Origin: Nitrospirales bacterium | GTDB lineage: Bacteria > Nitrospirota > Nitrospiria > Nitrospirales > UBA8639 | DNA length: 49,235 bases | Reading direction: 5' to 3' | Assembly: GCA_022824735.1 (NCBI GenBank) | Contig: JAJDZI010000136.1 | Location: 1 to 49,235 of the forward strand | In this document: in pieces, positions 3,246 to 45,104 of the stretch | Layout: every line of letters starts with the position of its first letter | How positions within the stretch are numbered: the first letter of the stretch is position 1 | The notes under the pieces: generated by a model | Databases searched by the model: none | Told to the model about the DNA's origin: nothing | Seen by the model: the letters and a program-made list of their open reading frames with translations, nothing else | Made by a program: the position numbers and the translations under genes

Positions 3246-3308
3246 GCCTGAACAGTCCATAGGAAAATGCGTTGCACTATTGCCCCATGACTAAGAAAGC
3301 GTGTTTTG

Positions 3309-9300: not shown

Positions 9301-12300
9301 TGCTTGCACCGGCGGGGATCCCATCCGCAGTACTCGCCGGAGTGTCCACCGCGTTTGTGTCAGCCGACTTGTCATTCGAACTCGCCGGGATAAAGCCGGG
9401 CGAGCGCGTGCTGATCCATGCCGGTGCCGGTGGAGTTGGACTCGCCGCTATCCAGTTGGCACAAGCAGCCGGCGCGCGGATATTCGCAACGGCCAGCGCG
9501 CCGAAGCAGGGGTTTCTTCGTTCACTCGGAGTGGATGCGGTGTATGACAGTCGCACGTTGGCTTTCGGGAGGGCGGTCCTCGAAGATACCGGTGGCGACG
9601 GGGTTGATATCGTACTGAACAGCCTGACCGGCAGGGGTTTCATAGAGACAAGCTTGTCCTGCCTTGCGCGCGGCGGCCGTTTTGTTGAACTCGGTGTACG
9701 CGATATCTGGAGCGCGGAGGACGTGGCGATGGCACGGCCTGACGTAGGGTATTCCGTTTTTTATCTGGACAACTTCAAGGAACGTGATTTTGTCCGTGCG
9801 GGCCGGGCGCTTGCGAGCGTCATGAGGCGTATCGAAGCGGGCGATCTGACTCCGATTCCGCATTTGTGTTGGTCAATGGCAGAGACTTCTTCGGCAATGG
9901 CCTTCATGCGTTCTTCCAAACATATCGGTAAAATTGTGCTGACGCAACCGCCGTGTGCGCACGGACGCGTGCGTGGCGATGCGACCTATCTCGTGACCGG
10001 TGGGTTCGGGGGAATCGGCTGCGCGCTGGCCGGTTGGCTTGCCGACCACGGCGCGGGCACGATCGTGCTCAATGGACGCCGCCCCCCGGATGCGGCCGCG
10101 CGGGAGACGATACGTGCGCTGGAATCACGCGGCGTCACTGTACGCAGTGAGATTGCGGACGTGACGGTAGCTGCGGAAGTGGCCGCGATGCTGGGTCGGA
10201 TCGACGCCGAGCTGCCGCCCCTCGCCGGCATCGTCCACAGCGTGGGCGTGCTTGCAGACGCCTCGCTCGTGAACCAGAGCTGGGAGAGCTTCGAGACGGT
10301 GGTCTGGCCGAAGGTACTCGGCGCATGGAACCTGCACCGGGCGACCGAGCATCGCGATCTTGACCTCTTTGTCCTGTTCTCCAGCGCGGCCGGTGTCATG
10401 GGCACTCCCGGGCAAGCGAATCATGCCGCGGCCAATGCATTCCTTGACCAGCTCGCCGCCCACCGGCGGGCGCTCGGCCTTCCCGGCCAGACCATTGCGT
10501 GGGGTGCATGGTCGGAACTCGGCGAGGCGGAGGAGCACCGCGAACGTATCGCCGGACACCTTTCGGCCCGGGGCGTCCGCTGGATGACGCCACGACAAGG
10601 GTTGCAGGTCTTCGAGCGGCTGCTGCGCGAGGACGCGGGGAATGCGGTGGTGATGGCGGCGGACTGGCCGGTGTACGGGGCGGCGCCGACGGCGCCCTTG
10701 CCGCTGATCGAGGAGTTGCTCTCTCTCGGATCGCGGGAAACGGCGCCGGTGCCCGAAATGCCGAAACGGCAGGACGACCTGCTGACGCGCTTGCGAAGCG
10801 CTGCCTTATCCGAGCGCGAAGGGCTGCTGTGCACCTTTGTGCTGGACGAGTTGCAATCGATCATGCGACTCCCCGCGCGACCTGCGCCGCGCGCGCGTTT
10901 CTTTGATCTCGGCATGGACTCCCTAATGGCAGTCGAATTGAGAAATCGCCTGAACCGGGCCTTCGCCGGCGCTTACGTGGCTTCCAACACGTTGGTGTTC
11001 GATTACCCTGACGCTCACACCCTCACTCGATTCCTTGTCGATGAGCTCGCCGAGGCGCTCGGCGGGGAAAGCGAGTCCAAGCCGGTATCGGCTCCCGCCG
11101 AGCAGATTGTCCGCGAGAGGCCGCACCACGGCCCGGGCAGCGACGAGTCGATCGCGATAGTCGGCATGGCTTGCCGGTATCCAGGCGCGCCGGACCTCAC
11201 CGCATACTGGAATCGACTCGCATCGGGCGTCGATCTCATCTCTGACGGACGCCCGGATTTCGAATCCTGGAGCCATGGCGTTGGAGATCCCGGGGCGGTT
11301 CATGCGTCGTTGCGACGCGGCGGGTTCGTGTCGGGTATCGACTGCTTCGATGCAGGCTTCTTCGGTATCCGGCCGATCGAAGCCAAAGCGATGGATCCAC
11401 AGCACCGGATGCTGCTGGAGACGAGCTGGCACGCGCTGGAAGATGCGGCTATCGATCCCTCTCGACTGCAGGGAGCGCGCGCAGGCGTGTACGTGGGTCT
11501 GGGACCGGGTGAGTATCGTGACCTCATAAACGCAGGTGGCGAGCACGGCGGCTATTTCGGCACGATGGGCAGCATTGCGGTGAGTCGTATCGCTTTCGCG
11601 CTCGGACTTGTCGGCCCCGCGATTCCCCTGGATTTGAACTGCGCCTCGTCGCTGGTTGCGGTTCACGAGGCAGCAATGGCGCTGCAGCGCGGTGAGATAG
11701 AACTCGCGCTGGCCGGCGGTGTCAACGCTATCCTGTCGTCCGGGGTCATGGGGTTTCTGATAGAGCATGGCCTGCTCTCCCCGACCGGTCATTGTGCTTC
11801 CTTCGACGCGTCGGCAGACGGGTACGTGCGCGGCGAAGGATGTGGCGTCATTGTCCTGAAACGCTACAGGGACGCGCAGTCTGACGGCGACCGGATTTGG
11901 GGCGTGATCCGTGGCTCGGCCGTCAATCACAGTGGGACAGGTGCCGGGTTGACGATGCCCAACGGGCCGGCCCAGCAGCAGGTCATGCAAGACGCGCTTG
12001 CTCGGGCGGGAGTGGCGCCGTCGGACGTGGACTACGTGGAGGCGAACGCAGTCGGCTCGGCGCTCGGCGACCCCATCGAGGTGCAGGCGACAGCCATGGT
12101 ATACGGCAACGGACGGGAGCAGGAGCGACCGCTGCTCGTTGGATCGGTGAAGTCAAACATGGGCCATCTGGAGGCTGCCGCAGGCATCGCCGGATTGATC
12201 AAGGTCGTACTATCGATGCGCTACGGCACCATTCCGAAGCAACTCCATTTCGAGACGCCGAGCCCGCATGTGGACTGGAACCTGTTGCCGGTTCGGATCG

Positions 12301-13637
12301 CCTCGCAATCGATCGATTGGCCACGCAAGCAGGACCGGACTGCGCATGCCGGCGTCAGCGCGTTCGGACTCTCGGGCACGAACGCACACGTGGTGGTGGA
12401 AGGGTACGGCGACCCGGACGCTGCGGGATTCGATGGAGGACATTGGCCGGCCGGTGCCGCGCAACCCGTGGCCGTTACTCTGCCGGAGTCAGTGGCAACC
12501 CTGTCATTGGCCGAGGAAGAATTCGCTTCTCGCAAGACGCGGGTCCTGCCGCTGTCCGGGAAATCAGGCGTCGCGCTACGGGAGATGGCGAAGCAATACC
12601 TGGCGTGGCTTGACGGACTCGCGCTTTCTTCCGGGGACGCGACCGATCACCTGCTGGCCGACGTGGCCTGGACCGCCGGCATCGGTCGTAGTCACTTCGA
12701 ACACCGGGCCGGGGTCGTATTCCGCGACGCCGCTTCGCTACGGGAAGGGCTCGAGAAGCTGGTAGAGGGGGGAGGACAGGTACCACGGCCAACGACCAAA
12801 ACGGCGTTCACGTACACGGGTCAGGCCGGACGATGGATTCGCATGGGAGAGGCGCTCTATGCGAGCGAGCCGGTGGTACGGGCGGTGCTGGACCGTTGCG
12901 ATGAGGTGTTACGGGAAGCCCGAGGTGCCTCATTACTGGACGCGATGTTCGGGCAGGCCGCAACAAAAGGTGACTTGCACGACGTGGCGTGGACGCAGCC
13001 GGCCGTCTATGCCCTTGAGTGTGCGCTCACGGCCCTGTGGGTAAGCGTGGGGATTCGTCCGAACGTGGTATTAGGACGTGGTCTCGGAGAATTGGCCGCG
13101 GCCCAGGCGGCCGGGGTGTTCGGCTTGGAGGATGGTTTGCGATTTGCCGCGGCGCGGGGTGCGCTGACCGGAGGATTGCCCGAAAGAGGCGCGCAGGCGG
13201 CGGGTCTCGACGATCTGGAAACGGCGCTGAAAGACGTCGCATTTGCAACGCCGTCACGTACTCTGGTGAGTAGCATGACGGGTCGAGTGGTGGAGACGGG
13301 AGAGACACTTGACGCAACATACTGGCGCAGCCAGGCAAACGAGCCGGAAACCTTCGACCGTTGCGCGGAGGCCTTGGCGGATCTGGGAGTGGAGACCGTG
13401 GTGGAAATTGGTCCATGCGCGATACAGGATTCGGCCACCGATGTTGACGAGACGCCAGTCGTGCTGTCGAGCCTGCGAGAACCCGGCGCATTCGCGGAGG
13501 CGGTTGCGGAGGCGTACTCGGCAGGACTCCCGGTTTCGTTCGCCGGTCTGTTCGCAGGAGAAACCCGTCGCCGGATTTCGCTGCCGGGTTATCCGTTCCA
13601 ACGCCGGCGTCATTGGGTCCGGATGCCGAAACGGTAA
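3309..13637 (+). CDS. Type I polyketide synthase, highly-reducing-type module plus a degenerate terminal KS-AT didomain (KS-AT-DH-cMT-ER-KR-ACP-KS-AT); no thioesterase
   Basis: Single 3,442-codon ORF (ATG 3309; in-frame TTG at 3306). Approximate domains: KS1 3402-4690 (DTACSSS Cys codon 3921, EAHGTGT 4326, NIGH 4446). AT1 5085-5935 (GHSLG, Ser codon 5364). DH 6201-7090 (HPLLG, HRVFDQVVAP, LLDGCFQ). C-methyltransferase about 7560-8330 (LEVGAGTGSAT). ER about 9000-9945 (LIHAGAGGVGLAA). KR about 9985-10690 (TGGFGGIG). ACP about 10840-11040 (LGMDSL, Ser codon 10920). KS2 about 11150-12400 (LNCASS Cys codon 11640). AT2 about 12800-13440. Confidence 0.95.
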   Translation: MKKKSSESPDPSKKQRSEPEIQKQANSGSNQPIAIVGMACRFPGAPNISAFWRLLEAGENAVTRGSPGESNGRVGQMFPNDVPVHDASRFGAFLSGIDQFDAEFFRISPLEAASLDPQQRLLLELSWEALEDAGIAPERLVGSRTGVYAGIGSYEYQELACAGSESIGPDATLYMVTGNRFSTASGRVSFFLGLQGPSVAIDTACSSSLVAMHQAITGLERGETDLAIAGGVCVILSPLTTEVMANAGMLSPTGQCWTFDERADGFVRSEGCGMLVLKRLDEAEAAGDRIWGVIRGSAINQDGVRPGLSVPIRLTQEQVIEDALARASVAPSQVDYLEAHGTGTKLGDPVEIAAAASVYGRGRNDERPLLVGSVKTNIGHLAAAAGTAGLIKVLLAMRQGVIPKHLNFRNPNPQIPWNPRVVQVTSEMMDWPGTPDRPPRAAVNSFGFSGTNAHVVVEGYPAPDTTGADEKQWPTGAAQPVAVALPEFAADLPVKTGELTARATRFLPLSGKSDDALRDLAKRYLSWLDERGLSSGDAVEPLLADMAWTAGTGRSHFDHRAGAVFHDVASLRDRLKALAEAGQDAEPRMATTVAFAYTGQASQWVGMGEALYASEPMVRAVLDRCDAVLRETRGASLLDVMFGRAATQGDLYDVAWTQPAIYALECALTALWASAGIRPDVVVGHSLGELAAAQAAGVFGLEDGLRFAATRGALMAALPEAGAMAAVFAPAPQVAEAVREQNAATGYAGVSVAADNGSHQVVSGTIEAVEAISERFLSENLLVNRLNTTLGAHSALVEPALDDLEAALANTAIAPPSLALVSNVTGRVMGPGETLDAAYWRRQAREPVAFASGVRTLADRGVDLVLEIGPHAVLGPMVSLAWPKSDRTPAPAVLWSLRQPSDNAPAGNSTFVKAVAGAYTAGLPIRFAGLFAGETRRRIALPAYPFQRRRHWVDAQKRRSSDAGHPLLGTRQDSAHGDTVFASEVRATDPEWLNDHRVFDQVVAPGALFGAMAAGALWSEGVRSVTLEECQLHSPMILRDEKAEGNGKSREASRKLQLLCEGPKTQSSRRFEVFSKGSEDDWILHMNGRMLPDVSPDAVPARMDLDAVRAGLTRGDVATLYRNKASTKVVLGPAFRLLQTICFGPGEAIGDIVLPQGLEQSGMDMHPILLDGCFQVLMAARDQARRAGQSTYMPFGWERLWLLGPPPQHVVCHVRMRGSGAGAEAIRDDSAEVLKADLWIYAPDGEPIGGVEGFTMKRATRAAMLATMTEVHDLLYEVAWRERAPAKGPGSTRLPAGAATGAARCASFSDYLHMEGVSPAQLVELLTDLDCLSRSYAVAAFQRLDCRRHAGAAVEPQALADVLGVGAEHRKLFTRLILMLNEAGVLTPGADGKLAVAVGRGEPLPDGGLGDPQRLAADLEAKHPYGRNEIGLLRRCGEALADVLLGRTEPLTLLFGSGEPSAADVYRHSVAAHASHRLLADALLPLCKALPEGRTLRVLEVGAGTGSATEAVRSVLPDGRFDYVFTDVSAGFFAAAEERFGGAEASFDYRVLNIEVDPSTQGFDRQGYDLVIASNVLHATRHLGETLTHCGSLLAPGGRLVVLEIMRARHWQDLTFGLLEGWWRFADPYRPASAIAGPAVWRQALGDAGFSDVTILGGGDDSAGTQVERALILARAPTETQPPGVWVLVCDRSGVGDALTRELAVRNQTVVVACENDAVGPDLHEVVKTRVSLQRRESWKSLFDGLPPAPALQGIVHLASLDGHGRRATSGEIAQDVKHAQASALALAQGAMDAGVTLAKGLWLVTRGAQVLEREREGTPAGATLWGFGKVLACEVSHLMPRMIDLDPEVPVDCSVLADELLWPDGENHIAWRGGRRHAARLVRSGVARPRMSLPDERGWRLEPGAGRTLDSLHVATVPARPLQPGEVRVAIEAAGLNFRDVLRTLGMLESGELGCELCGRVVDVGAQVSHLSVGDRVVGMTFGTFATEVVTRAELLVLAPAGIPSAVLAGVSTAFVSADLSFELAGIKPGERVLIHAGAGGVGLAAIQLAQAAGARIFATASAPKQGFLRSLGVDAVYDSRTLAFGRAVLEDTGGDGVDIVLNSLTGRGFIETSLSCLARGGRFVELGVRDIWSAEDVAMARPDVGYSVFYLDNFKERDFVRAGRALASVMRRIEAGDLTPIPHLCWSMAETSSAMAFMRSSKHIGKIVLTQPPCAHGRVRGDATYLVTGGFGGIGCALAGWLADHGAGTIVLNGRRPPDAAARETIRALESRGVTVRSEIADVTVAAEVAAMLGRIDAELPPLAGIVHSVGVLADASLVNQSWESFETVVWPKVLGAWNLHRATEHRDLDLFVLFSSAAGVMGTPGQANHAAANAFLDQLAAHRRALGLPGQTIAWGAWSELGEAEEHRERIAGHLSARGVRWMTPRQGLQVFERLLREDAGNAVVMAADWPVYGAAPTAPLPLIEELLSLGSRETAPVPEMPKRQDDLLTRLRSAALSEREGLLCTFVLDELQSIMRLPARPAPRARFFDLGMDSLMAVELRNRLNRAFAGAYVASNTLVFDYPDAHTLTRFLVDELAEALGGESESKPVSAPAEQIVRERPHHGPGSDESIAIVGMACRYPGAPDLTAYWNRLASGVDLISDGRPDFESWSHGVGDPGAVHASLRRGGFVSGIDCFDAGFFGIRPIEAKAMDPQHRMLLETSWHALEDAAIDPSRLQGARAGVYVGLGPGEYRDLINAGGEHGGYFGTMGSIAVSRIAFALGLVGPAIPLDLNCASSLVAVHEAAMALQRGEIELALAGGVNAILSSGVMGFLIEHGLLSPTGHCASFDASADGYVRGEGCGVIVLKRYRDAQSDGDRIWGVIRGSAVNHSGTGAGLTMPNGPAQQQVMQDALARAGVAPSDVDYVEANAVGSALGDPIEVQATAMVYGNGREQERPLLVGSVKSNMGHLEAAAGIAGLIKVVLSMRYGTIPKQLHFETPSPHVDWNLLPVRIASQSIDWPRKQDRTAHAGVSAFGLSGTNAHVVVEGYGDPDAAGFDGGHWPAGAAQPVAVTLPESVATLSLAEEEFASRKTRVLPLSGKSGVALREMAKQYLAWLDGLALSSGDATDHLLADVAWTAGIGRSHFEHRAGVVFRDAASLREGLEKLVEGGGQVPRPTTKTAFTYTGQAGRWIRMGEALYASEPVVRAVLDRCDEVLREARGASLLDAMFGQAATKGDLHDVAWTQPAVYALECALTALWVSVGIRPNVVLGRGLGELAAAQAAGVFGLEDGLRFAAARGALTGGLPERGAQAAGLDDLETALKDVAFATPSRTLVSSMTGRVVETGETLDATYWRSQANEPETFDRCAEALADLGVETVVEIGPCAIQDSATDVDETPVVLSSLREPGAFAEAVAEAYSAGLPVSFAGLFAGETRRRISLPGYPFQRRRHWVRMPKR
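12399..13619 (+). repeat. Diverged intragenic direct repeat: second copy of the post-KS linker plus AT region (first copy 4680-6167)
   Basis: Long identical runs shared between the copies. Examples: a 23-mer GGTGCCGCGCAACCCGTGGCCGT at 4734-4756 and 12453-12475, and a 30-mer ATGGGAGAGGCGCTCTATGCGAGCGAGCCG at 5127-5156 and 12843-12872. The protein segments are co-linear and highly similar. Copy 2 is about 270 nt shorter. Confidence 0.75.
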
Positions 13638-13868: not shown

Positions 13869-14774
13869 CTATAACAGGCTGTTCTGTTCCAGAAACTCGC
13901 GGAGGAGCGCCACGCATTCCTCCGGTTTTTCGAGTTGAAGGTAGTGGGTCGTCTCCGGCAGGAAATCATATTCCACAGCCACGATGTCACCCAGATCAGC
14001 CGTCGGCAAATAGGCAAACGGCAGGGTGGGATCGGCTCCGATGATTTTTGTCGGGCATGACAACGTTCCAAAATCCACCAACGGTGAAAACCCCCTGATG
14101 TAATCCACGATCTGGGCCTCGTATTCACGAGGGCACCGGAGTTCATAATCCTGTCCGTTCGCGGATGGTCGAAGCGTCGTCCTTGCCATGAGTTCCAATA
14201 CGCCGGGGACGACTCTGGCAAAAGCCGGCAGATAGCGAAGGAGGTCGACAAAGTCCGCCTGTGCTTGAAACCGGTGCCCGCGTCGCCGGGTCATTGAAGC
14301 AGCGCGTTCGGCGACATCATCAAATTCAACATGGCTTTTGCCGGGCTTGTACAGCGGGGGATCAAAGAGGACCTGCGCCGCCAGACTGTTGCTCCGGGGG
14401 GATACAAAAAGGCTCACCAAGGCTGCGACGGAATGAAAGACCCCGATTGTGGGTTTATTCCCGTAGTGCCGGTCGATCGCTTCCAGAATACGTTCCTGGT
14501 CGCGGATCAGGGTCGGAACGTTATGCTTTTGGCGAGAACCAACGGTATTCCACCCGTGGTTCCTGAGGTCGTAGACGATGAGATCGAATTCATCGAGGAG
14601 CAATGACCAGAACGGGTAATAGAGATCAATCGCCAGCCCGTTCCCATGGCTCAACACGAGACGGGGACCGTCCGGATTCCCGTGCCGTCTCAGGACCGTG
14701 ACCGTGTCCTCGTCGAGGCGGACTTCGCACACCGACAGGGGCTCGGGTATCTCCCACACGTTTTCTGAAGTCAT
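13869..14774 (-). CDS. Alpha/beta-fold hydrolase (candidate thioesterase or release enzyme)
   Basis: ORF open to a TTG at 14810. I prefer the ATG at 14774 (MTSENVW). Contains LVLSHGNG (oxyanion-type HG motif) and a nucleophile-elbow-like GVFHSVAA. Lies immediately downstream of, and co-oriented with, the ACP gene. Confidence 0.7.
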   Translation of the reverse strand: MTSENVWEIPEPLSVCEVRLDEDTVTVLRRHGNPDGPRLVLSHGNGLAIDLYYPFWSLLLDEFDLIVYDLRNHGWNTVGSRQKHNVPTLIRDQERILEAIDRHYGNKPTIGVFHSVAALVSLFVSPRSNSLAAQVLFDPPLYKPGKSHVEFDDVAERAASMTRRRGHRFQAQADFVDLLRYLPAFARVVPGVLELMARTTLRPSANGQDYELRCPREYEAQIVDYIRGFSPLVDFGTLSCPTKIIGADPTLPFAYLPTADLGDIVAVEYDFLPETTHYLQLEKPEECVALLREFLEQNSLL

Positions 14775-14844
14775 GGAAGGATCGGGACCACTTGCCGGGT
14801 TCTCTACCAAACCCGCTGAAAAGCGGCGGTGAATCCAACAACGT

Positions 14845-15093: not shown

Positions 15094-15294
15094 AACGTTG
15101 TACCTCCCCCAGCAAGTAATGGATAATTGATTTGTGCGAGCGAATAAAAAGCCAGAGCCTGGTATTACGCGAATTTACCGAGCATGTCAACATGAGTCCA
15201 CTGCCGGCAATCCAGTGCGACTCATACCTGGCCATCTCACACCGGGAATCCCATGCTTTGTCCTGGAGCGCGGGGGGCGGTAGAATCCAATTCA

Positions 15295-17082
15295 ATGGAA
15301 CCCTTCGACGTCGTAAAACAGTACCATGAGCAGACCAAACATGACTTCAACCGGTATGCCCGCGCGTTGGGATACATGGACTGGGCTAATCAGCCTGATC
15401 CCTTCCGGCGCTATGAAGGGGCCCCGCTCTACGCATTACCGCTGCTCGAAGCCAACGACAAACCCGTTTCTCCTCCTTACGAATCGCTCTTTTCTTCACC
15501 ACCAATCCCTGCCCAACCCCTGACCCTGAACAGTCTTTCCCGATTCTTCGAATACAGTCTCTCCATCACGGCGTGGAAAGAATATGGGGGGAATCGCTGG
15601 GCATTGCGCAGCAATCCGTCCAGCGGCAATTTGCATCCCACGGAAGGGTATCTGCTGATCCGGGAAACCGCTGAGCTTCCGTTGAAGCCGGGACTCTATC
15701 ACTATGCCCCCAAAGAACATGGTTTGGAGCACCGTTGGCACGGCTCGAATGAGATCATCGAAGCTCTCCTGCAACCTTTTCCCGCACAATCTTTTTTCGT
15801 GGGGCTGAGTTCGATCCATTGGCGGGAAGCGTGGAAGTATGGAGAACGCGCGTTTCGCTACTGCCAGCACGACGTCGGTCATGCGCTGGGCACGTTGCGG
15901 ATTGCGGGAGCCGTGCTCGGGTGGGAAGTCTTTCTTCTCGCCGGACTCAATGACCGGACAATCGGGACCCTGCTCGGCCTGGACCGGTTGCATGAATTCG
16001 ATCGTGCCGAACCCGAATTTCCCGAACTGCTGTGCGTGGTCTGTCCCATGCCAACGCTTCTACCTCCCCTACCCCCTCCTCACCCTTCGACTTCGCTCAG
16101 GGCAGGCAAAGGAGGGGAACAAGAAGCACCCCTGCCATTTACCGTTGATCAGGACCTAATCCGGCATTGGGAACACGGAGACTGGCGAGGCAAGGCCAAC
16201 CGATTGAGCCGGGATAATCCCGTTCCCTGGGAAATTATCGACGATGTGACCAAGGCGTCATGGAAAACCTCGACGGAATCATCGGAGCTTCCATGGTTTT
16301 CCTCCCCTGCCCCGATCCGGGAATTGGCTGAAACGGAACCGGCGTCTGTTCCCGATTCCCGTCCGGGCATGGTTTCCGCGCACCGGATCATCCATCAACG
16401 ACGAAGCGCGGTGGCGTTCGACGGGAACACGTCGATTTCCGCACAACAATTCTTCACGATGCTGGAGCGGGTCATGCCTCACGCGGATCGACCGGTCGCT
16501 CAACGGCCCATGCCGTGGGATTCGCTGCCCTGGCTCCCCACCATTCACTTGGCCCTGTTCGTGCATCGAGTCGACGGGCTCCTACCCGGCATGTACATGC
16601 TCCTGCGAAATGGCGACCCGGCGCTTAAGGGCGCCTTTCAACAAGCCATGCATGAGCAATTCGTCTGGACCGTTCCCAATCAGTGTCCGGCATCGCTTCC
16701 GCTCTATCTGTTGGAAGACGGAGACACCCAACGCATCGCCATGCAGTTGAGTTGCCATCAGGAAATCGCCGGCGACAGCGCCTTCTCATTGGGCATGATT
16801 GCGGAATTCGAGGCGTCTTTGGAGAAACATGGACCGTGGTTCTACAAGCGTCTGTTTTGGGAAACCGGACTCATCGGACAGGTGCTGTACCTCGAAGCGG
16901 AAGCGGCCGGTGTTCGTTCAACCGGTATCGGGTGTTTTTTCGACGACCCCGTGCATCGCGTGCTGGGGTGGCATCCCGACACGCGATTTCAATCCCTGTA
17001 TCACTTCACCGTCGGCGGCCCGGTCGAGGATCATCGCCTCACGACCCTGCCGCCCTATGGCGAACTGAGGCCGCTCCCTTGA
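15295..17082 (+). CDS. SagB/ThcOx-type dehydrogenase, two-lobed nitroreductase-family protein
   Basis: N-terminus MEPFDVVKQYHEQTKHDFNRYARALGYMDWANQPDPFRRYEG is the characteristic SagB-type dehydrogenase opening. The C-terminal half ends in the nitroreductase-like GIGCFFDD...YHFTVGGP. An upstream in-frame ATG at 15253 is also possible. Confidence 0.8.
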   Translation: MEPFDVVKQYHEQTKHDFNRYARALGYMDWANQPDPFRRYEGAPLYALPLLEANDKPVSPPYESLFSSPPIPAQPLTLNSLSRFFEYSLSITAWKEYGGNRWALRSNPSSGNLHPTEGYLLIRETAELPLKPGLYHYAPKEHGLEHRWHGSNEIIEALLQPFPAQSFFVGLSSIHWREAWKYGERAFRYCQHDVGHALGTLRIAGAVLGWEVFLLAGLNDRTIGTLLGLDRLHEFDRAEPEFPELLCVVCPMPTLLPPLPPPHPSTSLRAGKGGEQEAPLPFTVDQDLIRHWEHGDWRGKANRLSRDNPVPWEIIDDVTKASWKTSTESSELPWFSSPAPIRELAETEPASVPDSRPGMVSAHRIIHQRRSAVAFDGNTSISAQQFFTMLERVMPHADRPVAQRPMPWDSLPWLPTIHLALFVHRVDGLLPGMYMLLRNGDPALKGAFQQAMHEQFVWTVPNQCPASLPLYLLEDGDTQRIAMQLSCHQEIAGDSAFSLGMIAEFEASLEKHGPWFYKRLFWETGLIGQVLYLEAEAAGVRSTGIGCFFDDPVHRVLGWHPDTRFQSLYHFTVGGPVEDHRLTTLPPYGELRPLP

Positions 17083-21580: not shown

Positions 21581-21605
21581 GGATCCCGATTCCGTTCATT
21601 TGCGC

Positions 21606-22391: not shown

Positions 22392-22525
22392 GCCGGCGGG
22401 CCGTTGGTCGGTTGTCGTAGTGCGAATTCCCCGGCTTTCGCTGAATTGCCTCACTATTACAATCTAAGCACAAAATTTAAATAGCAAGGTTTGTTATTGC
22501 GAAACTCTGAATAAGGACTGTCGTC

Positions 22526-22738
22526 ATGAAACGTGGGGAAAGCGGCAGATATGAGGTAACAAACATCAGCGGTGAACACGTTCGCGCCTTTGTGCCAGCG
22601 CCGCTTCCGCCGAAACCCAATCTCGTTCTGGACGGCTCGCCGCAACAGATGCTCGAAGCGGCGGTGCTTGCCCTGGGCCGCCTCGACGGCGTAGCAACCC
22701 TCCTGCCGGATGAGACGCTTTTTCTGTATGCCCGAGGC
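22526..22738 (+). pseudogene. Fic-family protein fragment (N-terminal Fic_N region only)
   Basis: GRYEVTNISGEHVRAFVPAPLPPKPNLVLDGSPQQMLEAAVLALGRLDGVATLLPDETLFLY matches the conserved Fic N-terminal domain. It breaks off before the expected EAxxSSxIEG and HPFxxGNGR motifs. The ORF then runs on to 22915 in unrelated sequence. Confidence 0.6.
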
Positions 22739-22778
22739 GTCGTGAAATTAAGTGTCTTGTATATCCGGCCGTCAGGCA

Positions 22779-22859
22779 CACGATACCGAGTACATCCACC
22801 GCCACAGCAAGAACGGCTACGAGGTGGAGCACATCTGGGCCAACAAACCCGAACGCCAA
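22779..22859 (+). pseudogene. Short remnant of a DUF1524 / GmrSD-like nuclease gene
   Basis: TEYIHRHSKNGYEVEHIWANKPER in another frame resembles the YEVEHIWA..PER block of DUF262/DUF1524 proteins. Only about 27 codons are recognisable. Confidence 0.35.
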
Positions 22860-22948
22860 AGCCTGTCATCGAGATTTGGCATTGGAGAATGGTGTCCATG
22901 GCGGCCATATTGTAAATTGAATTGCACTATGCTAGGCTCGCAAAGCCG

Positions 22949-22984
22949 CATAAGGTGCCTTTACATAAGGTGCCTTTACATAAA
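22949..22984 (+). repeat. Tandem 15-nt repeat (CATAAGGTGCCTTTA x2 plus a partial third copy) directly upstream of the RiPP precursor gene
   Basis: Units at 22949-22963 and 22964-22978 are identical, and CATAAA follows. The AGGTGCCT core recurs a third time at 22997-23004, overlapping the Shine-Dalgarno of the precursor. Confidence 0.85.
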
Positions 22985-23005
22985 TTCTTGTAGGGGAGGT
23001 GCCTC

Positions 23006-23272
23006 ATGGTTTCTATGAAAGAAGCGCGGGACCGTCTGATTGAAAAAGCTTCATCGGACGATGCATTTCGGACTCTCTTGATCAACGATCCCAGAAAGGC
23101 CGTTGAAGAAGAATTTGGGGTGACGTTACCCGATAGCTTTTCCGTCACGGTGCATGAACAAAGTCCAACTGAAGCACATCTGGTTCTGCCACCGGCAGTA
23201 AAACTGGAGGAAAGGGATTTAAAGCTCGTTTCTGGTGGGTTACCCTGGTGTAGTAGTGGGGGTTGTTGGTAA
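23006..23272 (+). CDS. NHLP (nitrile-hydratase-like leader peptide) family RiPP precursor; predicted core LPWCSSGGCW
   Basis: 88 aa. The leader (DAFRTLLINDPRKAVEEEFGVTLPDSFSVTVHEQSPTEAHLVLPP) follows the NHLP pattern. A double-Gly site (LKLVSGG, 23234-23239) precedes a 10-residue Cys/Trp core (23240-23269). The dedicated NHLP exporter trio is encoded alongside. Confidence 0.85.
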   Translation: MVSMKEARDRLIEKASSDDAFRTLLINDPRKAVEEEFGVTLPDSFSVTVHEQSPTEAHLVLPPAVKLEERDLKLVSGGLPWCSSGGCW

Positions 23273-23289
23273 AGAAAAGAGGCGTTTAC

Positions 23290-31358: not shown

Positions 31359-31387
31359 TTGACATTGTTTGATTTTCGTATTATGTA
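31359..31387 (+). promoter_or_regulatory. Putative sigma70-like promoter of the tra (MPF-F) operon
   Basis: TTGACA (31359-31364), 17-nt spacer, TATGTA (31382-31387), in an AT-rich patch of the divergent intergenic region. Confidence 0.4.
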
Positions 31388-31419
31388 CTGTTAGGTCTAA
31401 TATTGCTTGCGCACCCGTC

Positions 31420-32265
31420 ATGTTCATCATCCTCACTATTGTCGCTGTTTTCGAGTTGTCCGGGTGTTCGGCTCCTCTCGCACCTGGTTCCGTCACACAA
31501 CAGGACCATTCGGGTCAAACGCCGTCCCTTGCTCGTAATCAACAGGTGTTGTGCCGCACAAACAGTCATCTTTATCCCTGCATCATCACTTCCCCAAAAA
31601 CGCCTCTCACGCCGGCGTCCCGGGTGCCCGCCGCTTCTTCCGGCGGACCTTCAACGTCACCACTCATAACTCATCATGACCCACCGGAGACGGAGGCGCA
31701 CTTGGCAGAACATGAAAACATTGCGATCCGGCTCCAGGAAATCACATCGACACTCGAACCCCTTCTCGCCAATCTGTCAAAGCCTGAATCTCCGCATCCG
31801 CTGCCTGACGCGCACCAGCCGGCTGCCGGCAAGTCATCCAAAAAAGAGGTCGTCCCTGCCCGGGATTCAGATCGCCCGGTTCCACAACAGAAGCTCAGGG
31901 GCAGGCTCCTGGCGTCCGTGTATTTCTCCTCGAACAGCACCGAACTCGCGCCCTCGGAGAAGATCGTTTTAATCGATCTTCTCCCTGTAGTCCGCGACAA
32001 ACAACTCCTGTTTGTCGGCTACTCCGACCGCGCCGGTGACGACAATGCCGATGCACGCTTGTCCTACAAGCGAGCGCGGACCGTCAAAGCCTTCTTTGCG
32101 CAAACCGGACACGACCCGGGCAAGCTCTTCGCCGGAGGGAAGGGTTCATGCTGTGACAAAACCGAGGGGAACACCCCCACCGGACGGCAACGGAACCGGC
32201 GCGTTGAAATCTATCACGCCCTCGAACGGCTTCGGCTTCAATCGCCACCTTTCAGCAAGGAGTAA
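31420..32265 (+). CDS. OmpA-family peptidoglycan-binding lipoprotein
   Basis: Preferred start MFIILTIVAVFELSGC (lipobox LSGC); the ORF is also open from 31369. C-terminal OmpA-like domain: VYFSSNSTELAP...LLFVGYSDRAGDDNADARLSYKRARTVKAFF...NRRVEIY. Confidence 0.75.
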   Translation: MFIILTIVAVFELSGCSAPLAPGSVTQQDHSGQTPSLARNQQVLCRTNSHLYPCIITSPKTPLTPASRVPAASSGGPSTSPLITHHDPPETEAHLAEHENIAIRLQEITSTLEPLLANLSKPESPHPLPDAHQPAAGKSSKKEVVPARDSDRPVPQQKLRGRLLASVYFSSNSTELAPSEKIVLIDLLPVVRDKQLLFVGYSDRAGDDNADARLSYKRARTVKAFFAQTGHDPGKLFAGGKGSCCDKTEGNTPTGRQRNRRVEIYHALERLRLQSPPFSKE

Positions 32266-32269
32266 CGCC

Positions 32270-32563
32270 ATGAAAGCCATCCATCTTTACTGTTTTTTCC
32301 TTTTTCTGTTCTTCTTCCTCATCCCTGCCACCGCCATTGCGGCTACGACGGGAGCCGACTTTCAAGACTTGTATGACTTCTTCTACGAGGCCGCCACCGG
32401 ATATCTCGGGCGCGCCATTGCCATCGTCGGCGGACTCATGGGCCTCGGCGTCGGGGCCGCCACCGGCAAACCCATTCCGGCCTTGATGGGTATCGTACTT
32501 GCCGTCTTCGGGACACTTGGTCCCACGTTGATCAATAACCTGTTCAGCAGCGCGACAATCTAG
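32270..32563 (+). CDS. traA: Conjugative pilin precursor (TraA/VirB2-like)
   Basis: AAGGAG Shine-Dalgarno. 97 aa. Signal peptide ending ATAIA/A. The mature part is about 73 aa with two Gly/Ala-rich hydrophobic helices. Sits immediately upstream of traL, as in F. Confidence 0.6.
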   Translation: MKAIHLYCFFLFLFFFLIPATAIAATTGADFQDLYDFFYEAATGYLGRAIAIVGGLMGLGVGAATGKPIPALMGIVLAVFGTLGPTLINNLFSSATI

Positions 32564-32565
32564 TC

Positions 32566-32865
32566 ATGGATAACGAGAACATGGAAGATTACTGGATTGG
32601 CCGGAACCTCGACGCTCCCCAATTATTTTTCATGTGGGAAGCCGATCGCGCGTATTTTGCGATGCTGTGGGTCCTGGGCGGCATGCTCCTGGGCTCGACG
32701 GTTCTCGGCGTCGTGGCGGCCATGATCTTCGGACGCCTCTACGCACAGATCAAGGAGGAAGGGGGCAAAGGACTCTTGCCGCGCATCCTGTACTGGCACA
32801 CCCCCTCCTCTTTATGGCTTTCCTCTTATCTACCATCCTACTCACGGGAATTCCTCGGACGGTGA
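32566..32865 (+). CDS. traL: Type-F conjugative transfer protein TraL
   Basis: 99 aa. LDAPQLFFMWEADRA, one TM helix, then KEEGGKGLLPRILYWHTP...PSYSREFLG. This is co-linear with F TraL (..KKGRGSSWLRDLIYWYMP..). Confidence 0.8.
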   Translation: MDNENMEDYWIGRNLDAPQLFFMWEADRAYFAMLWVLGGMLLGSTVLGVVAAMIFGRLYAQIKEEGGKGLLPRILYWHTPSSLWLSSYLPSYSREFLGR

Positions 32866-33470
32866 ACAAGGAAAAATATCTTTCAGCGCTTACCAGCGCC
32901 AACTATAAAACCGCCGTCTGGATGCTCGTTGCCGGCGTCCTCCTGATGACGAATCTCCTTCAAGCGCTCTTTCTCTTCACCGCTGATCTCACGGAAAAGA
33001 CCATCGTTGTTCCCCCTGATCTCGTCAAGCCGTTTTCCATCCACAAGAGCAAGGTCAGCCCCGCCTACGTCGAGCAGATGACCCATTATCTCAGCCAGCT
33101 CCTGCTCACCTACCACGACGATAACGTGACGGCTCAATTCGACTCCGTCCTTCGACACGTTGACCCCGCGGCTTACGCACACCTCAAAGCTGAATTCCAT
33201 GCGCAAGCCGAGCGCATCCGGCGCCACCTGATCGGCTCCGTGTTCTATCCCATGGGCATCCACGTCGCCAAATTGACTGCCACCATCAATGGCGAGCTCG
33301 TCAGTATGATTGGGCAAAAAATCGTCTCGCGCAAACAGAAGTACTACCAATTCGACTACGCCTACCGGAACGGCTCATTCTATCTGGTGAAATTCCAAGA
33401 ACTCGAAAAGGGACCGGGGGAAGAACTCAAACCCATTGAACCCAAGGAAGATGAGGAGGTGACTTTCTGA
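32862..33470 (+). CDS. traE: Type-F conjugative transfer protein TraE
   Basis: The GTG overlaps the traL stop (GTGA); an alternative ATG is at 32814. N-terminal TM helix followed by a periplasmic domain co-linear with F TraE (about 190 aa). Position between traL and traK. Confidence 0.7.
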   Translation: MNKEKYLSALTSANYKTAVWMLVAGVLLMTNLLQALFLFTADLTEKTIVVPPDLVKPFSIHKSKVSPAYVEQMTHYLSQLLLTYHDDNVTAQFDSVLRHVDPAAYAHLKAEFHAQAERIRRHLIGSVFYPMGIHVAKLTATINGELVSMIGQKIVSRKQKYYQFDYAYRNGSFYLVKFQELEKGPGEELKPIEPKEDEEVTF

Positions 33471-34198
33471 TGATTCGTCTTGCCCTCCCCTGTCTCTCTA
33501 CCCTTCTGCTCTTTCCGGGCGCAGCAGCCGGCATTCAGAATTTCACGGTCCGTGACGGTGCCAGTATCACCGCCATTATCTCGTCACATGAACTGACCCG
33601 GGTGACGGTCGCCGGCAGCCAACGCCTGGAAAAGGTCTGGGCGCCGGCCGGGACGTTATGGGTTCAGCCCGATGAGGCACAAGGCGATATCTTTATCAAG
33701 CCCGTGGCCGGCGCTCCGGCGACCATGAGCTTCTTCGTCCGTGACGGTGCCGGTGGCACGTATACGATCATCGCTCAGCAGCGCGACGTCCCATCTGAAA
33801 CGATTCTTCTGAACCCCGAGTTACCGGCGCGCCGGGCGAATCCGCGCCAAACCGGACGGCAGTCTTTCTCCTACGTCCGGGAAATCAAGCGTCTCATGCT
33901 CGCCATGGCACTCGACCGGGAGACCAAGGGGTTCACGAAAGACACGCACGACGTTCCTGTGCCGTTCTGGAAGGAAACCCGGATCGTCCACACCGGCACC
34001 TACACCGGCTCTCGCTTCATTGGCCAAGTCTATGAAATCGAAAATCTCACCAGCCAGCCGCTCACGTTCCATGAACAGGAATTCCTTGCCTTCATTCCCG
34101 ATACCCGAGCGGTCGCCCTCCGCCACTTCACGCTCCCTGCGGGCACGTCCACGTCGCTCTATATTGTTCGCGACAATGCCATGAGGATCGAACCATGA
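33470..34198 (+). CDS. traK: Type-F conjugative transfer secretin-like protein TraK
   Basis: 242 aa (the same length as F TraK, as I recall it). Has a signal peptide, overlapping start and stop codons, and the conserved position between traE and traB. Confidence 0.7.
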   Translation: MIRLALPCLSTLLLFPGAAAGIQNFTVRDGASITAIISSHELTRVTVAGSQRLEKVWAPAGTLWVQPDEAQGDIFIKPVAGAPATMSFFVRDGAGGTYTIIAQQRDVPSETILLNPELPARRANPRQTGRQSFSYVREIKRLMLAMALDRETKGFTKDTHDVPVPFWKETRIVHTGTYTGSRFIGQVYEIENLTSQPLTFHEQEFLAFIPDTRAVALRHFTLPAGTSTSLYIVRDNAMRIEP

Positions 34199-35508
34199 AA
34201 CTCCTGAGTGCCAACGAAACCAAACGTAAGCAAATGCTGCTGGCCGGCGGCGCGGGTGTCGGCCTGATCAGCCTCCTGGTCTTCGGCCTTTGGTTCACCG
34301 ACCCCAATAAGGATCAACCCTCTCTTCGCGAAAAGCAGCGCGAACAAGCAGCCGAAGTCACCAAAAGCTTCCGGACCAAGAAGGCTGTCTCGGCTGAGGA
34401 AACCTGGATTGCCAAATCAGAAGAGAAAATTGCGGAACTTGAAAACAAAAACCGTGACGTCACAACGGCCATGAGGAACATCCGAACCAGCCTCGCTGAA
34501 CTCGGTATCGACGTCGGCGCTCTTGCTAAACAATCGCAAGAGAAGCCGGGGGCGGGGACGCCGGGGGCGGAAGAAGAAGAAGCTGGTCTCCCAATACCCA
34601 ACCTGAAACCCAAACCTCCCGATCCTCTTCCGCTGTTAAAGACGCCCGAGCCACCGACGGTCAATCCACCTCTTCCGGCAATACCGGCACTCCCCAGCCC
34701 CTTGCCGCCGGGACAGGGTACGCGCTTAATCACGCCGGCGCGGAACGTCGCCGGCCAGCCTGATAAAACGTCCCCTCAGCAACAAAACGGCGAGATCCAC
34801 ATGGTCACCGTAGGGAATCGCCCGGCCGGGGACGGCGATGCCAAGAACGTCAAGCAATATATTCCCGCGGGAAGCTTTGCCTCGGTCCGTCTCCTCTCCG
34901 GGGTCGATGCCCCCACCGGGGGCGCTGCCAATGCCAATCCTATTCCCGTTCTCCTTCGGGTGATGACTGATGGCACACTCCCCAATTTCTTTCATTCGAA
35001 CGTGTCAAGCTGCCACGTCGTGGCCTCAGCCCACGGCGAAATATCCAGCGAGCGCGCTCACATCCAACTTGAGAGAATCTCCTGCGTACTCCTCAACGGC
35101 AACGCCATCGAAACTCAAGTAAAGGGGTATATCACGGGTGAGGATGGGAAGGCCGGCATGCGAGGACGCCTTGTCTCCAAACAAGGCTCCCTCATTGCGC
35201 GCTCGCTCCTGACGGGTCTCGCTTCCGGTTTCGGGAGAACGCTCCAGCAACAATCCCAGCAACTCGCAACCAGTCCGCTCGGGGCCGTGGCGACCGTCGA
35301 TCCCAACCGTGTTCTGCAAGCCGGAGCGGGTGCCGGAATCTCCACTGCGCTCGAGAAGATTGCCGACTATTATCTCCAGCGCGCGAATGAAATCTACCCG
35401 ATTATCGAAATCGCCGCGAACCGCGAAGGCGAAGCCATCCTCCAGGAAGGTGTTTCGCTCGATCAACCCATCCTTCACAACACTCGTGAGGGAGAGGACC
35501 TCTTATGA
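34195..35508 (+). CDS. traB: Type-F conjugative transfer protein TraB (VirB10-like)
   Basis: 437 aa. N-terminal TM helix, coiled-coil, Pro-rich linker (PNLKPKPPDPLPLLKTPEPPTVNPPLP). C-terminal beta-barrel region with IPAGSF..VRLLSGVDAP...PIPVLLRV, typical of TraB/VirB10. Confidence 0.8.
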   Translation: MKLLSANETKRKQMLLAGGAGVGLISLLVFGLWFTDPNKDQPSLREKQREQAAEVTKSFRTKKAVSAEETWIAKSEEKIAELENKNRDVTTAMRNIRTSLAELGIDVGALAKQSQEKPGAGTPGAEEEEAGLPIPNLKPKPPDPLPLLKTPEPPTVNPPLPAIPALPSPLPPGQGTRLITPARNVAGQPDKTSPQQQNGEIHMVTVGNRPAGDGDAKNVKQYIPAGSFASVRLLSGVDAPTGGAANANPIPVLLRVMTDGTLPNFFHSNVSSCHVVASAHGEISSERAHIQLERISCVLLNGNAIETQVKGYITGEDGKAGMRGRLVSKQGSLIARSLLTGLASGFGRTLQQQSQQLATSPLGAVATVDPNRVLQAGAGAGISTALEKIADYYLQRANEIYPIIEIAANREGEAILQEGVSLDQPILHNTREGEDLL

Positions 35509-35864
35509 AACTTCTCCTGCTCAGCGTTTTCGCCGGCCTGGCGGCTTGTGGGCCGACGTACACCTGCGGGGACGTTCCGGACGCCGTCTGCCAATCGGTT
35601 TCAGAAACCTACGATCAGGTCCGGGGCGACGCGGGGCAGGACTCTCACGCGATTTTCACTCCTGACCCTCCCGGCCACGTCACCCCCACGACACCGGATA
35701 TGGCGTCTTCACCAAAAGACGCCGGTTTTGGTGAGCCGTTCCTGACACGGCCACGCCTGCTCAGAATCCTGCTGACGCCTTGGGAGGACAAACAGAAAGA
35801 CCTTCACGCCGGCGGGTACGTCTATATCCGTCTGGAGGAATCACAATGGGTGATACCCAGGTAA
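35505..35864 (+). CDS. traV: Type-F conjugative transfer lipoprotein TraV
   Basis: 119 aa. Lipobox LAAC with paired cysteines shortly after it (CGPTYTCG...VC). Position between traB and traC. Confidence 0.65.
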   Translation: MKLLLLSVFAGLAACGPTYTCGDVPDAVCQSVSETYDQVRGDAGQDSHAIFTPDPPGHVTPTTPDMASSPKDAGFGEPFLTRPRLLRILLTPWEDKQKDLHAGGYVYIRLEESQWVIPR

Positions 35865-38437: not shown

Positions 38438-38453
38438 CATTGAACAGGACACC

Positions 38454-38894
38454 ATGACTGCTGAACCCGCAACAACACAGGAAATCCAAGGAACGCCGGC
38501 AGCCGCGGCGCCACAGCCACAAATCCCAAACGCGATACCGGCCGGCGCGATGAGTACGACAAAACTTCTTGCTTTCGCCTCCTTGGCCGGCGCGTTCGCC
38601 GCCCTGCTCGTCATCGCTATTCACTTCGTCGGCAAAGAACCTCCGGTCCGATTCGGCGTTGTCAATATCCAGGACATTCTCGAACGCCATATCAAGGAGT
38701 ATGCTGCGCGCAATCTCACCAAGGAACAGCAACAAGAAGCCGCCGCGACCTTCTCAAAATCTCTCGAATTCGAGATTCGCCAACTCGCCAAGAAAGAACG
38801 GCTCCACCTTCTGGTCGCACCGGCGGTCCTGTCCGACGTGCCCGACTATACCGGATACATTGAGCAGCAATTACAGGTGCCCGATGGCCTGTAA
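38454..38894 (+). CDS. trbI: Type-F conjugative transfer protein TrbI
   Basis: One TM helix, then VRFGVVNIQDILERHIKEYAARNLTKEQQQEAAATFSKSLEFEI...LLVAPAVLSDVPDYTGYI. This is co-linear with the TrbI pattern. Position after traC, as in F. Confidence 0.6.
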   Translation: MTAEPATTQEIQGTPAAAAPQPQIPNAIPAGAMSTTKLLAFASLAGAFAALLVIAIHFVGKEPPVRFGVVNIQDILERHIKEYAARNLTKEQQQEAAATFSKSLEFEIRQLAKKERLHLLVAPAVLSDVPDYTGYIEQQLQVPDGL

Positions 38895-39375
38895 CCTGAC
38901 ACCGCGACAGATGCGGCGCATACTCCGCTGGGGGTTCGCCGGCGTCTTGTTCGTTATAGCCATATGGGCGCTTTCGTTCTTTTATCTCATCGGTTTCAAT
39001 ACGACCAATAGCTTGCCCGGATACGTGTACCTGGTCATCAGGTCTCACTACCCCGCGAAGAACGAGCTCGTTGCGTTCCATCCCCCGCCCAATGACTTCT
39101 ATCCGCATCGCTGGTTCATCAAATACGTAAAAGGAGCAGCCGGTGACGTCGTCCGCTGGGACGGCCAGACTTTCTCCATCAATGATCAACCTCTGGGTTC
39201 AGCCAAAGTTCGTTCTGAAAACGGGATCGCGTTGGCGCGCGGAACCGCAGGACAGATTCCTCCTCATTATTATTTCGTCTGGAGTGAACATGCTGACAGT
39301 TTCGACAGCCGCTATGCACAAATCGACCTGGTTCATCGGGATCGCATTATCGGCCGCGCTTATCGGCTCTTCTAG
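38884..39375 (+). CDS. trhF: Conjugative transfer signal peptidase (S26 family; RP4 TraF / IncH TrhF-like)
   Basis: NTTNSLPGYVY (Ser nucleophile box), IKYVKGAAGD (Lys box) and SFDSRY, which are the LepB/TraF-peptidase signatures. Confidence 0.75.
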   Translation: MACNLTPRQMRRILRWGFAGVLFVIAIWALSFFYLIGFNTTNSLPGYVYLVIRSHYPAKNELVAFHPPPNDFYPHRWFIKYVKGAAGDVVRWDGQTFSINDQPLGSAKVRSENGIALARGTAGQIPPHYYFVWSEHADSFDSRYAQIDLVHRDRIIGRAYRLF

Positions 39376-43592: not shown

Positions 43593-43617
43593 GTCTAATT
43601 GGACTCCAAGATTTCCA

Positions 43618-45078: not shown

Positions 45079-45104
45079 GGAGGTCATGAGCCATTAACTG
45101 GGAA

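Follow-up and report, generated by a model that had tools for sequence, protein, structure and literature searches.

The 49,235-nucleotide contig JAJDZI010000136.1 of a Nitrospirales bacterium (assembly GCA_022824735.1), here called the window and analysed over its whole length, contains a six-gene cluster that appears to encode a ribosomally synthesised and post-translationally modified peptide (RiPP). Genes for a precursor, a GRDP-like protein and a protein of predicted alpha-beta-beta-alpha (ABBA) fold lie on the forward strand, and converge with genes for two ATP-binding cassette (ABC) proteins and an HlyD adaptor on the opposite strand. The reading that we favour, with a probability of roughly 0.6, is that the cluster makes a leader-dependent prenylated mini-RiPP, with prenylation probably at Trp88, a GRDP-linked step at a Cys residue, removal of the leader after Gly78, and export. 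This reading is built on a precursor with a nitrile-hydratase-like leader peptide (NHLP), its Gly-Gly site, a C39 exporter system, a conserved gene cassette, the ABBA fold prediction and a conserved C-terminal (Cys-)Trp. The parts of the cluster are as follows.

22949 to 23004, forward strand: upstream repeats, with CATAAGGTGCCTTTA twice in tandem (22949-22978, 15-nt unit)
22953, 22968 and 22997, forward strand: three copies of the octamer AGGTGCCT, the third overlapping the ribosome-binding site GGGGAGG
23006 to 23239, forward strand: leader, residues 1-78, an NHLP that ends L-x3-D-L-x2-V-S-G-G
23240 to 23269, forward strand: core LPWCSSGGCW, residues 79-88, in which the C-terminal GGCW is a family motif and LPWCSS is found only here
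23290 to 23721, forward strand: GRDP-like protein, 143 residues (PF27765, UCP032817-like, related to PF07173/DUF1399)
23811 to 24914, forward strand: putative peptide prenyltransferase, 367 residues, predicted ABBA fold (alpha-beta-beta-alpha x5)
25000 to 27936, reverse strand: NHLP-system ABC permease/ATPase, 978 residues, without a peptidase domain (TIGR03797-like; Pfam ABC_membrane and ABC_tran)
27961 to 30186, reverse strand: NHLP-family exporter, 741 residues, with an N-terminal C39 peptidase domain (TIGR03796, Peptidase_C39)
30252 to 31148, reverse strand: HlyD-type periplasmic adaptor, 298 residues (Pfam HlyD_3)

The precursor is encoded by an open reading frame (ORF) of 88 residues at 23006-23272 (forward strand), of which residues 77-88 are GGLPWCSSGGCW (23234-23269, forward strand) and which ends with the stop codon TAA (23270-23272). 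The ATG is preceded at 6 nt by a strong Shine-Dalgarno sequence, GGGGAGG (22993-22999), the translation exceeds the curated TIGR03793 cutoff for NHLP leaders (67.9 vs 50.9 bits), and homologous precursors are present in other loci with the same gene order; these three features mark the ORF as a real gene, encoding an NHLP-type (proteusin-like) RiPP precursor. In the TIGR03793 alignment, precursor residues 5-78 correspond to model positions 3-77 of 77, and leader homology ends exactly at Gly78. The same site is preceded by a fitting double-glycine consensus (L67 at -12, D71 at -8, L72 at -7, V75 at -4, G77 at -2 and G78 at -1), of which L67, L72 and V75 are invariant in 8/8 aligned precursor homologues, eight having been found among 5.8 billion proteins. 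Given the end of the NHLP model at Gly78 and the double-glycine context, cleavage after Gly78 to give the 10-residue core LPWCSSGGCW is the best-supported prediction, and both core and boundary are well supported. The original prediction, drawn from the letters of this DNA, had called a RiPP precursor with a 10-residue core after the first Gly-Gly and a C39 domain to release it, and these calls agree with the family scores given here. It had also regarded the internal Gly-Gly as an unlikely site; its position (residues 85-86) is confirmed, no leader-type context lies upstream of it, and cleavage there was rejected, since the L-12/D-8/L-7/V-4 context and the NHLP model end fit only Gly77-Gly78. 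The repeats upstream of the gene may be an operator or regulator binding site. A consensus scan upstream of the precursor found no sigma-70-like promoter, and DNA similarity to one related locus (L001; related loci are cited by number) begins at 22982, downstream of the tandem CATAAGGTGCCTTTA repeat.

The export genes are of the matching kind. The 741-residue exporter scores 867 bits against TIGR03796 (cutoff 853.3) and matches Pfam Peptidase_C39 with E 9.4e-32, and its C39 domain, as read from the translation, is catalytically complete (Q29, C35, H108, D124). The 978-residue ABC protein reaches 695.3 bits against TIGR03797, slightly below the 709.4 cutoff, and the best NCBIfam match of the HlyD adaptor is TIGR03794 (NHLP bacteriocin secretion protein), below cutoff at 103.6 vs 156.2. 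Together these genes form a dedicated NHLP export trio (C39-ABC, second ABC, HlyD), co-located and mutually adjacent. Four other loci (L002, L004, L019 and L020) share the order of precursor, ~143-residue and ~367-residue protein genes, two more (L005 and L010) have these genes rearranged, and L004, a Nitrospirales metagenome-assembled genome (MAG), has the whole six-gene layout, including both ABC genes and HlyD, at 78-84% DNA identity. Because they are co-conserved with the precursor across phyla, the 143- and 367-residue proteins are likely to act on it.

The assignment of the 367-residue protein as a prenyltransferase comes from structure prediction. Its AlphaFold2 model (49 homologues) has a predicted local distance difference test score (pLDDT) of 91.6 and a predicted template-modelling score (pTM) of 0.91, and consists of five alpha-alpha-beta-beta repeats. 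A Foldseek search against the PDB with this model returned exclusively ABBA aromatic prenyltransferases in its top 43 places, including many indole-specific enzymes. The best is AnaPT (E 1.7e-6, template-modelling (TM) score 0.51), and nearly every match among the top 40 has probability 1.00; the others include 5-DMATS, AmbP1, EpzP, IptA, CloQ, NphB/Orf2, CdpNPT, PriB, AtaPT, NotF and FgaPT2, and the peptide enzymes KgpF, LimF and DciF. Conserved residues are spaced i/i+2 on the predicted strands (E61/R63, E127/Y128/D129, R215, R270/E274, H341/K343, K355/Y357), and these charged and aromatic pairs would be compatible with a diphosphate-binding barrel interior. By sequence the protein falls outside the DMATS-type, the Orf2/CloQ-type and the cyanobactin F-family enzymes. 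It thus presents itself as a probable remote member of the ABBA superfamily, recognised by modelled fold alone.

Homologues of this protein are numerous: a profile search at E <= 1e-3 returns 3792 representative clusters (50% identity), of which 692 remain at E <= 1e-30. They are annotated as hypothetical, and no Pfam or NCBIfam model covers them. In every inspected locus with readable surroundings, at least 12 independent ones besides the window, family members adjoin NHLP or Nif11 precursors; the hosts of these include Nitrospirales, Arenicellales, Alphaproteobacteria, Nostoc (on a megaplasmid) and Pseudanabaena (in a LanM/Nif11 cluster). In one locus (L007), a polyprenyl diphosphate synthase is encoded beside the family member. 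Scanning JGI (Joint Genome Institute) metagenomes for further loci found none.

Several family members show unusual architectures. One form is joined to an FAD_binding_4 oxidase by translational coupling or by fusion (L008 6622..9236, P0067), another has a tandem double prenyltransferase-family domain (P0289), and the member in the Pseudanabaena LanM/Nif11 cluster is fused to a 2OG-Fe(II) oxygenase (L022 5971..7764). The metagenomic contig ERZ21830300 ctg716686l (L016 1..15101) carries 11 NHLP precursors, three prenyltransferase homologues (two intact, one split) and two genes each for GRDP-like and cyclase-like proteins. In L002 (710..7759, reverse strand), a second NHLP precursor (core FGQMPGEWI), together with YcaO, DUF4135 (LanM-like) and methyltransferase genes, lies beside the cassette, apparently as two RiPP pathways side by side. 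In L001 (8900..9145; core GGCWSYG), the prenyltransferase gene is cut down to a 55-residue C-terminal remnant next to an intact precursor and an intact GRDP-like gene, an apparent example of decay within the family.

The identity of the modified residue was approached through the cores of 31 precursors, either homologous to that of the window or adjoining homologues of its neighbour enzymes. Examples, grouped by relationship, are as follows.

Nearest relatives (neighbour enzymes 50-75% identical): GGCWSN, GGCWSY, GGCWSYG, GGCWA, GGCWA
Second clade: GGCAGDCLWTG, GGCAGDCAWV, GAGCVGTSCAWA, GGCSGACAWTS, SGCHGECIWVS
Third clade (the 11 precursors of L016): nearly all end in CW, e.g. HASHDEQHPGAVCW and HDGTNHCEAIDTCW
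Distant loci: HHEGDW, CGGSGSNW, FTSVGGPIW, YSFNEPW

A Trp is present within the last six residues in 29/31 of these cores, preceded by Cys as CW in 16 and as CxW in 5. Trp88 is the likely acceptor because a Trp in the C-terminal region is the one residue common to almost all of the associated cores. The DNA of the window resembles that of three relatives up to 23238/23239 and again from 23270-23285; this break makes the core a hypervariable cassette, with a conserved leader on one side and downstream genes that are likewise conserved on the other. The GGCW codons of the window match those of the relatives at 9/12 bases, vs 5/12 in the alternative register (manual base count). The alignment behind this count, made with four relatives, was ambiguous, and gave no firm conclusion on whether LPWCSS arose through a simple duplication or an insertion.

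The same comparison bears on the original prediction's picture of a mirror-symmetric W-C-S-S-G-G-C-W core closed by a disulfide. Its outer W-C...C-W is indeed mirrored, but the inner SSGG reversed reads GGSS, and the mirror holds for 4/8 residues. Among the 31 cores, that of the window alone has the first Trp, the segment LPWCSS and the mirror symmetry, and since no homologue has the symmetry, it is incidental, at a level not above chance. WCxxxxCW, whose conservation had been proposed as a check, is not conserved, and what survives in the core alignment is the C-terminal Cys-Trp. The six-residue disulfide loop likewise loses its place as the defining feature, because the closest relatives, with neighbour enzymes at 68-75% identity, carry a single Cys. 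Prenylation, one of the modifications that had been listed, gains backing from the adjacent ABBA-fold homologue, but for Ser dehydration no candidate enzyme was found here. The likeness to ComX that had been drawn is reasonable as a comparison of small prenylated peptides, but the cluster has no sensor kinase or regulator beside it that would point to a pheromone role.

A disulfide-based account would run as follows: an unprenylated 10-mer with an essential Cys82-Cys87 disulfide loop between two Trp, serving as a small bacteriocin or pheromone, with the downstream genes unrelated or accessory. Two Cys that stand four small residues apart could pair after export, pairs of Cys recur in several relatives (C-AGD-C, C-VGTS-C, C-x5-CW), and double-glycine leaders and C39 exporters also serve unmodified class II bacteriocins. 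This account is improbable in view of the single Cys in GGCWSN, GGCWSY and GGCWA, of a second Cys that is optional across the family and stands 2 to 12 residues from the first where two occur, with no conserved Cys pair, of a first Trp that is unique to the window, and of the conservation of the two downstream genes along with the precursor.

The 143-residue GRDP-like protein is the second candidate modifying enzyme. Precomputed PF27765 matches are recorded for it and for almost all of 90 other homologues, and a local Pfam/NCBIfam scan, in a set that did not include the PF27765 model, gave no match. A 40-sequence alignment shows the invariant motif W65-H66-x-H68-I-L-D-T..Y75..D78-C79...H89. 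The predicted structure is all-helical (pLDDT 87), and Foldseek against the PDB returned no match better than E 1.7 for it. The gene is present in 8/8 loci with C(x)W cores (the window, L001, L002, L004, L005, L010, L016 and L019) and in 0/4 loci without such cores (L007, L008, L015 and L021), an association that is suggestive, not proven. Three further C-x-W precursors and GRDP-like matches occur on contigs of equal size. A literature search found no paper tying GRDP/DUF1399 to RiPPs, the papers on DUF1399 being mainly plant GRDP phenotype and omics studies. In three loci (L017 7001..13491, L018 7001..13337 and L023 5962..12155), from Chondromyces apiculatus, a metagenomic contig and an Azospirillum plasmid (on the plasmid beside restriction-modification genes), a GRDP-like protein of 161 residues with a Cys-rich tail (...C-x-P-Q-R-C-P) is part of a non-RiPP cassette, together with a methyltransferase, a TauD dioxygenase and a ~1400-residue UvrA-like ATPase.

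A bolder proposal, which we put forward tentatively and hold to be possible though not probable, is that the GRDP-like protein is a new metal-dependent RiPP maturase that acts on the Cys-Trp pair, partnered with an unnamed clade of leader-dependent ABBA prenyltransferases. The chemistry may be a crosslink from Cys-S to the indole or from Cys-S to the prenyl group, or another cysteine transformation. If this were true, the clusters would define a new class of lipidated Cys-Trp peptides of 5-10 residues in marine Nitrospirales and other uncultured bacteria, and would provide the first biochemical function for the DUF1399/GRDP superfamily, which is also present in plants.

Most relatives encode a further partner. 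In seven loci (L001, L004, L005, L007, L010, L015 and L016), a protein of ~313 residues with an invariant PPDxDDT motif is found. Searches of the PDB and Pfam gave only sub-threshold squalene-hopene cyclase matches for it; on the basis of these matches, the motif, and a fusion (P0195) in which the C-terminus of this protein is joined to a prenyltransferase domain, it is assigned as a cyclase-like protein. Such partners suggest C15-C20 donors in those relatives. L002 and L008 likewise have no cyclase-like gene in the sequence read, so the cyclase is not obligatory. In the window, where this gene is missing, the prenyl group on the product would be expected to stay linear, barring a cyclase encoded in another part of the genome.

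Taken together, the favoured pathway would begin with docking of the precursor onto the 367-residue prenyltransferase through its structured 78-residue leader, by analogy with MppC, a lanthipeptide prenyltransferase discussed below. The enzyme would then transfer an isoprenoid from a prenyl diphosphate to the core, most probably to the indole of Trp88. Judging from its co-occurrence with Cys-Trp cores, the GRDP-like protein, with its His/Asp/Cys cluster, could carry out or aid a second step at Cys87, beside this Trp. With both the double-glycine motif and the exporter family identified, the C39 domain of the 741-residue protein would cut after Gly77-Gly78, and the ABC pair and HlyD adaptor would export the product. 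The pathway would yield a very small lipidated peptide, made up of LPWCSSGGCW and a prenyl group, in which a Cys82-Cys87 disulfide might form outside the cell, although not as a family trait.

Several observations weigh against this pathway. The fold matches of the 367-residue protein are remote (8-16% identity, TM about 0.5), the protein itself has no Pfam or NCBIfam match, and a profile built from 49 members of the family has no match among PDB sequences at E <= 10. No isoprenoid diphosphate synthase is encoded in the window, and searching it with the cyclase-like profile gives nothing at E <= 1, with none encoded in the 49 kb. The correlation between GRDP-like genes and C(x)W cores spans three enzyme clades with the gene vs four without, and is not independent of phylogeny; GRDP-like proteins are, as described, also found in non-RiPP cassettes. 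Trp is missing from four cores that accompany family members, two in L007 and two in Nostoc, so the acceptor differs among family members. The upstream deletion scars described below mean that the cluster could be partly decayed. Finally, the C-termini CW, CWxx and CxWx resemble CaaX boxes, and S-prenylation of Cys would fit them too.

This last point can be developed into an alternative in which the Cys thiol is prenylated in a CaaX-like manner, Trp serves only for recognition, and the GRDP-like protein later processes the C-terminus or the thioether. Core ends such as CW, CWA, CWSY, CAWV and CLWTG are reminiscent of CaaX, CC and CXC boxes (rules in PMC10853753), a thiol is more nucleophilic than an indole, and the GRDP-like protein tracks Cys-containing cores. 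We consider it unlikely, since the L008 and L015 cores (HHEGDW, FTSVGGPIW and YSFNEPW) end in Trp without an adjacent Cys, which makes Trp rather than Cys the common denominator, and since the characterised bacterial peptide prenyltransferases use Trp, Tyr, Ser/Thr, His, Arg and termini (PMC10853753, PMC13290415).

The genomic surroundings bear on whether the cluster is functional. The flanks of the cluster (21359-22393 and 31332-37616) are ~91% identical to the Nitrospirales MAG L010, which has a differently arranged island in the same chromosomal slot, between the PTPS gene and the OmpA/F-type tra region, and the RiPP cluster appears to be a variable island. At its left edge (22526..22915, forward strand) are a non-family ORF and DNA remnants that match the N-terminus of a Fic protein (Fic_N, 43% over 83 residues) and, over 55 nt, part of a GmrSD gene; the Fic and GmrSD genes are intact at the same place in L010, and the remnants are deletion scars. 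On the right, the island abuts a conjugative element, with an OmpA-like gene followed by F-type conjugative transfer genes (31369..48977, forward strand: TraE, TraK, TraB/TrbI, TraC, TraU, TraN, TraH, TraG with a lysozyme domain, and an S26 peptidase), a block ~91% identical to L010.

One might then see in the cluster a decaying remnant, with an extended core mutated from a GGCW-type one, a lost cyclase and no functional product. The core is a singleton among its relatives, the cyclase-like gene present in the seven loci named above is missing here, Fic_N and GmrSD fragments (22526-22915) lie directly upstream, the sister locus L001 has lost most of its prenyltransferase gene, and the second ABC protein scores slightly, and the HlyD adaptor clearly, below the curated cutoffs. 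We nevertheless regard decay as very improbable: all six cluster genes are full-length ORFs with catalytic or conserved residues intact, the precursor retains its strong ribosome-binding site, L002 and L008 also lack a cyclase-like gene in the sequence read, and a hypervariable core behind a conserved leader is normal in RiPP families.

Other biosynthetic genes are present in the window, outside the cluster. These include a type I polyketide synthase (PKS) encoded by a single ORF of 3443 residues (3306..13637, forward strand; KS-AT-DH-MT-ER-KR-ACP, a second KS and a CurL-like C-terminal region), which is unrelated to the RiPP cluster, and next after it an alpha/beta hydrolase (13869..14810, reverse strand). 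A SagB-family peptide dehydrogenase of 609 residues (15253..17082, forward strand; TIGR03605, 112 bits vs a cutoff of 78) was considered as a Cys-modifying enzyme and set aside, as it is 6 kb off, behind housekeeping genes, and no YcaO cyclodehydratase is present in the window's ORF list.

Prenylated ribosomal peptides are wanted as readily engineered lipopeptides. To our knowledge, just a handful of leader-dependent peptide prenyltransferases have been characterised (MppC, NctPC, PalQ and ComQ). Recognising the family described here as ABBA-fold peptide prenyltransferases would allow many cryptic terpene-RiPP clusters to be found by genome mining, and its tiny cores (GGCWA, GGCWSN, LPWCSSGGCW) lend themselves to cheap synthesis and testing. 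The co-occurrence of GRDP-like genes with Cys-Trp cores, for its part, gives the DUF1399/GRDP superfamily its first hypothesis open to a biochemical test.

The cluster can be compared with several known systems. The NHLP/Nif11 family and its dedicated export were described by Haft, Basu and Mitchell 2010, as cited in PMC12715784. The window's leader, Gly-Gly motif, paired ABC transporters and HlyD match the architecture described there, but the maturases in that description are cyclodehydratases, lanthionine synthetases and radical SAM enzymes, in contrast to the ABBA-fold and GRDP-like proteins of the window. A literature search found no paper that links NHLP leaders with ABBA prenylation, the NctPC system being known through a review.

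Trp prenylation that depends on a Nif11 or NHLP leader has been established experimentally for MppC (PMC12715784) and PalQ (PMC10853753), and, as described in PMC13290415, for NctPC. MppC, the lanthipeptide prenyltransferase of Moorena producens, is a soluble ABBA enzyme that geranylates the Trp indole in a heptapeptide core, and strictly requires a long structured leader of Nif11/NHLP type including an L(x)4L motif (PMC12715784). The window's leader carries the same motif, as L67-x4-L72, and a distant member of the window enzyme's family is found in the Pseudanabaena LanM/Nif11 cluster. MppC differs in acting after a lanthionine ring made by LanM, whereas the window has no lanthionine synthetase, and in the leader of its substrate MppE, which is of Nif11 type where that of the window is an NHLP.

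NctPC (Hubrich et al., Chem 2024) is described in the review PMC13290415 as an ABBA-fold prenyltransferase fused to an MstE-like cyclase, which geranylgeranylates Trp and then cyclises the chain; the product is named steromaze in PMC13647313. The likeness is that the window's relatives pair their enzyme with a class II terpene-cyclase-like protein, in one case as a fusion. The window enzyme itself is stand-alone, with no cyclase in the 49 kb, and differs in these respects from NctPC. Further points of difference are the window's extra GRDP-like gene and its core of 10 residues (5-6 in sister loci) with a Cys-Trp end. The substrate of NctPC is reportedly a cyanobacterial proteusin, i.e. one with an NHLP leader.

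PalX of Paenibacillus alvei is an NHLP precursor with a short core, DNVRRFFW, whose conserved C-terminal Trp is prenylated by PalQ (PMC10853753). The precursor in the window shows the same combination of an NHLP leader and a conserved C-terminal Trp, Trp88, and PalX/PalQ and the Bacillus ComX/ComQ system resemble it further in yielding small lipidated peptides (PMC10853753, PMC13290415). PalQ and ComQ, however, have the trans-isoprenyl-diphosphate-synthase fold rather than the ABBA fold, and no polyprenyl-synthase-like gene turned up in the cluster or in the Pfam scan of window ORFs. The PalX and ComX clusters also differ in containing a histidine kinase and in lacking a C39 ABC exporter, a Cys-Trp motif and a GRDP-like gene. 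The cyanobactin F-family enzymes (PagF, KgpF and LimF) share the ABBA barrel and peptide prenylation, but are leader-independent and act on N-C macrocycles (PMC12715784); in the fold search they rank under the indole/DMATS-type enzymes, and they have no sequence-level similarity to the window enzyme.

By analogy, the cluster in the window would work like the MppC, NctPC and PalQ systems, the GRDP-like protein tied to Cys-Trp cores being the one part that no known system explains. Its product would be a prenylated NHLP/Nif11-type RiPP of a known kind with new features, distinguished by a stand-alone enzyme of an unnamed family, a GRDP-like partner, a Cys-Trp motif and a tiny linear core.

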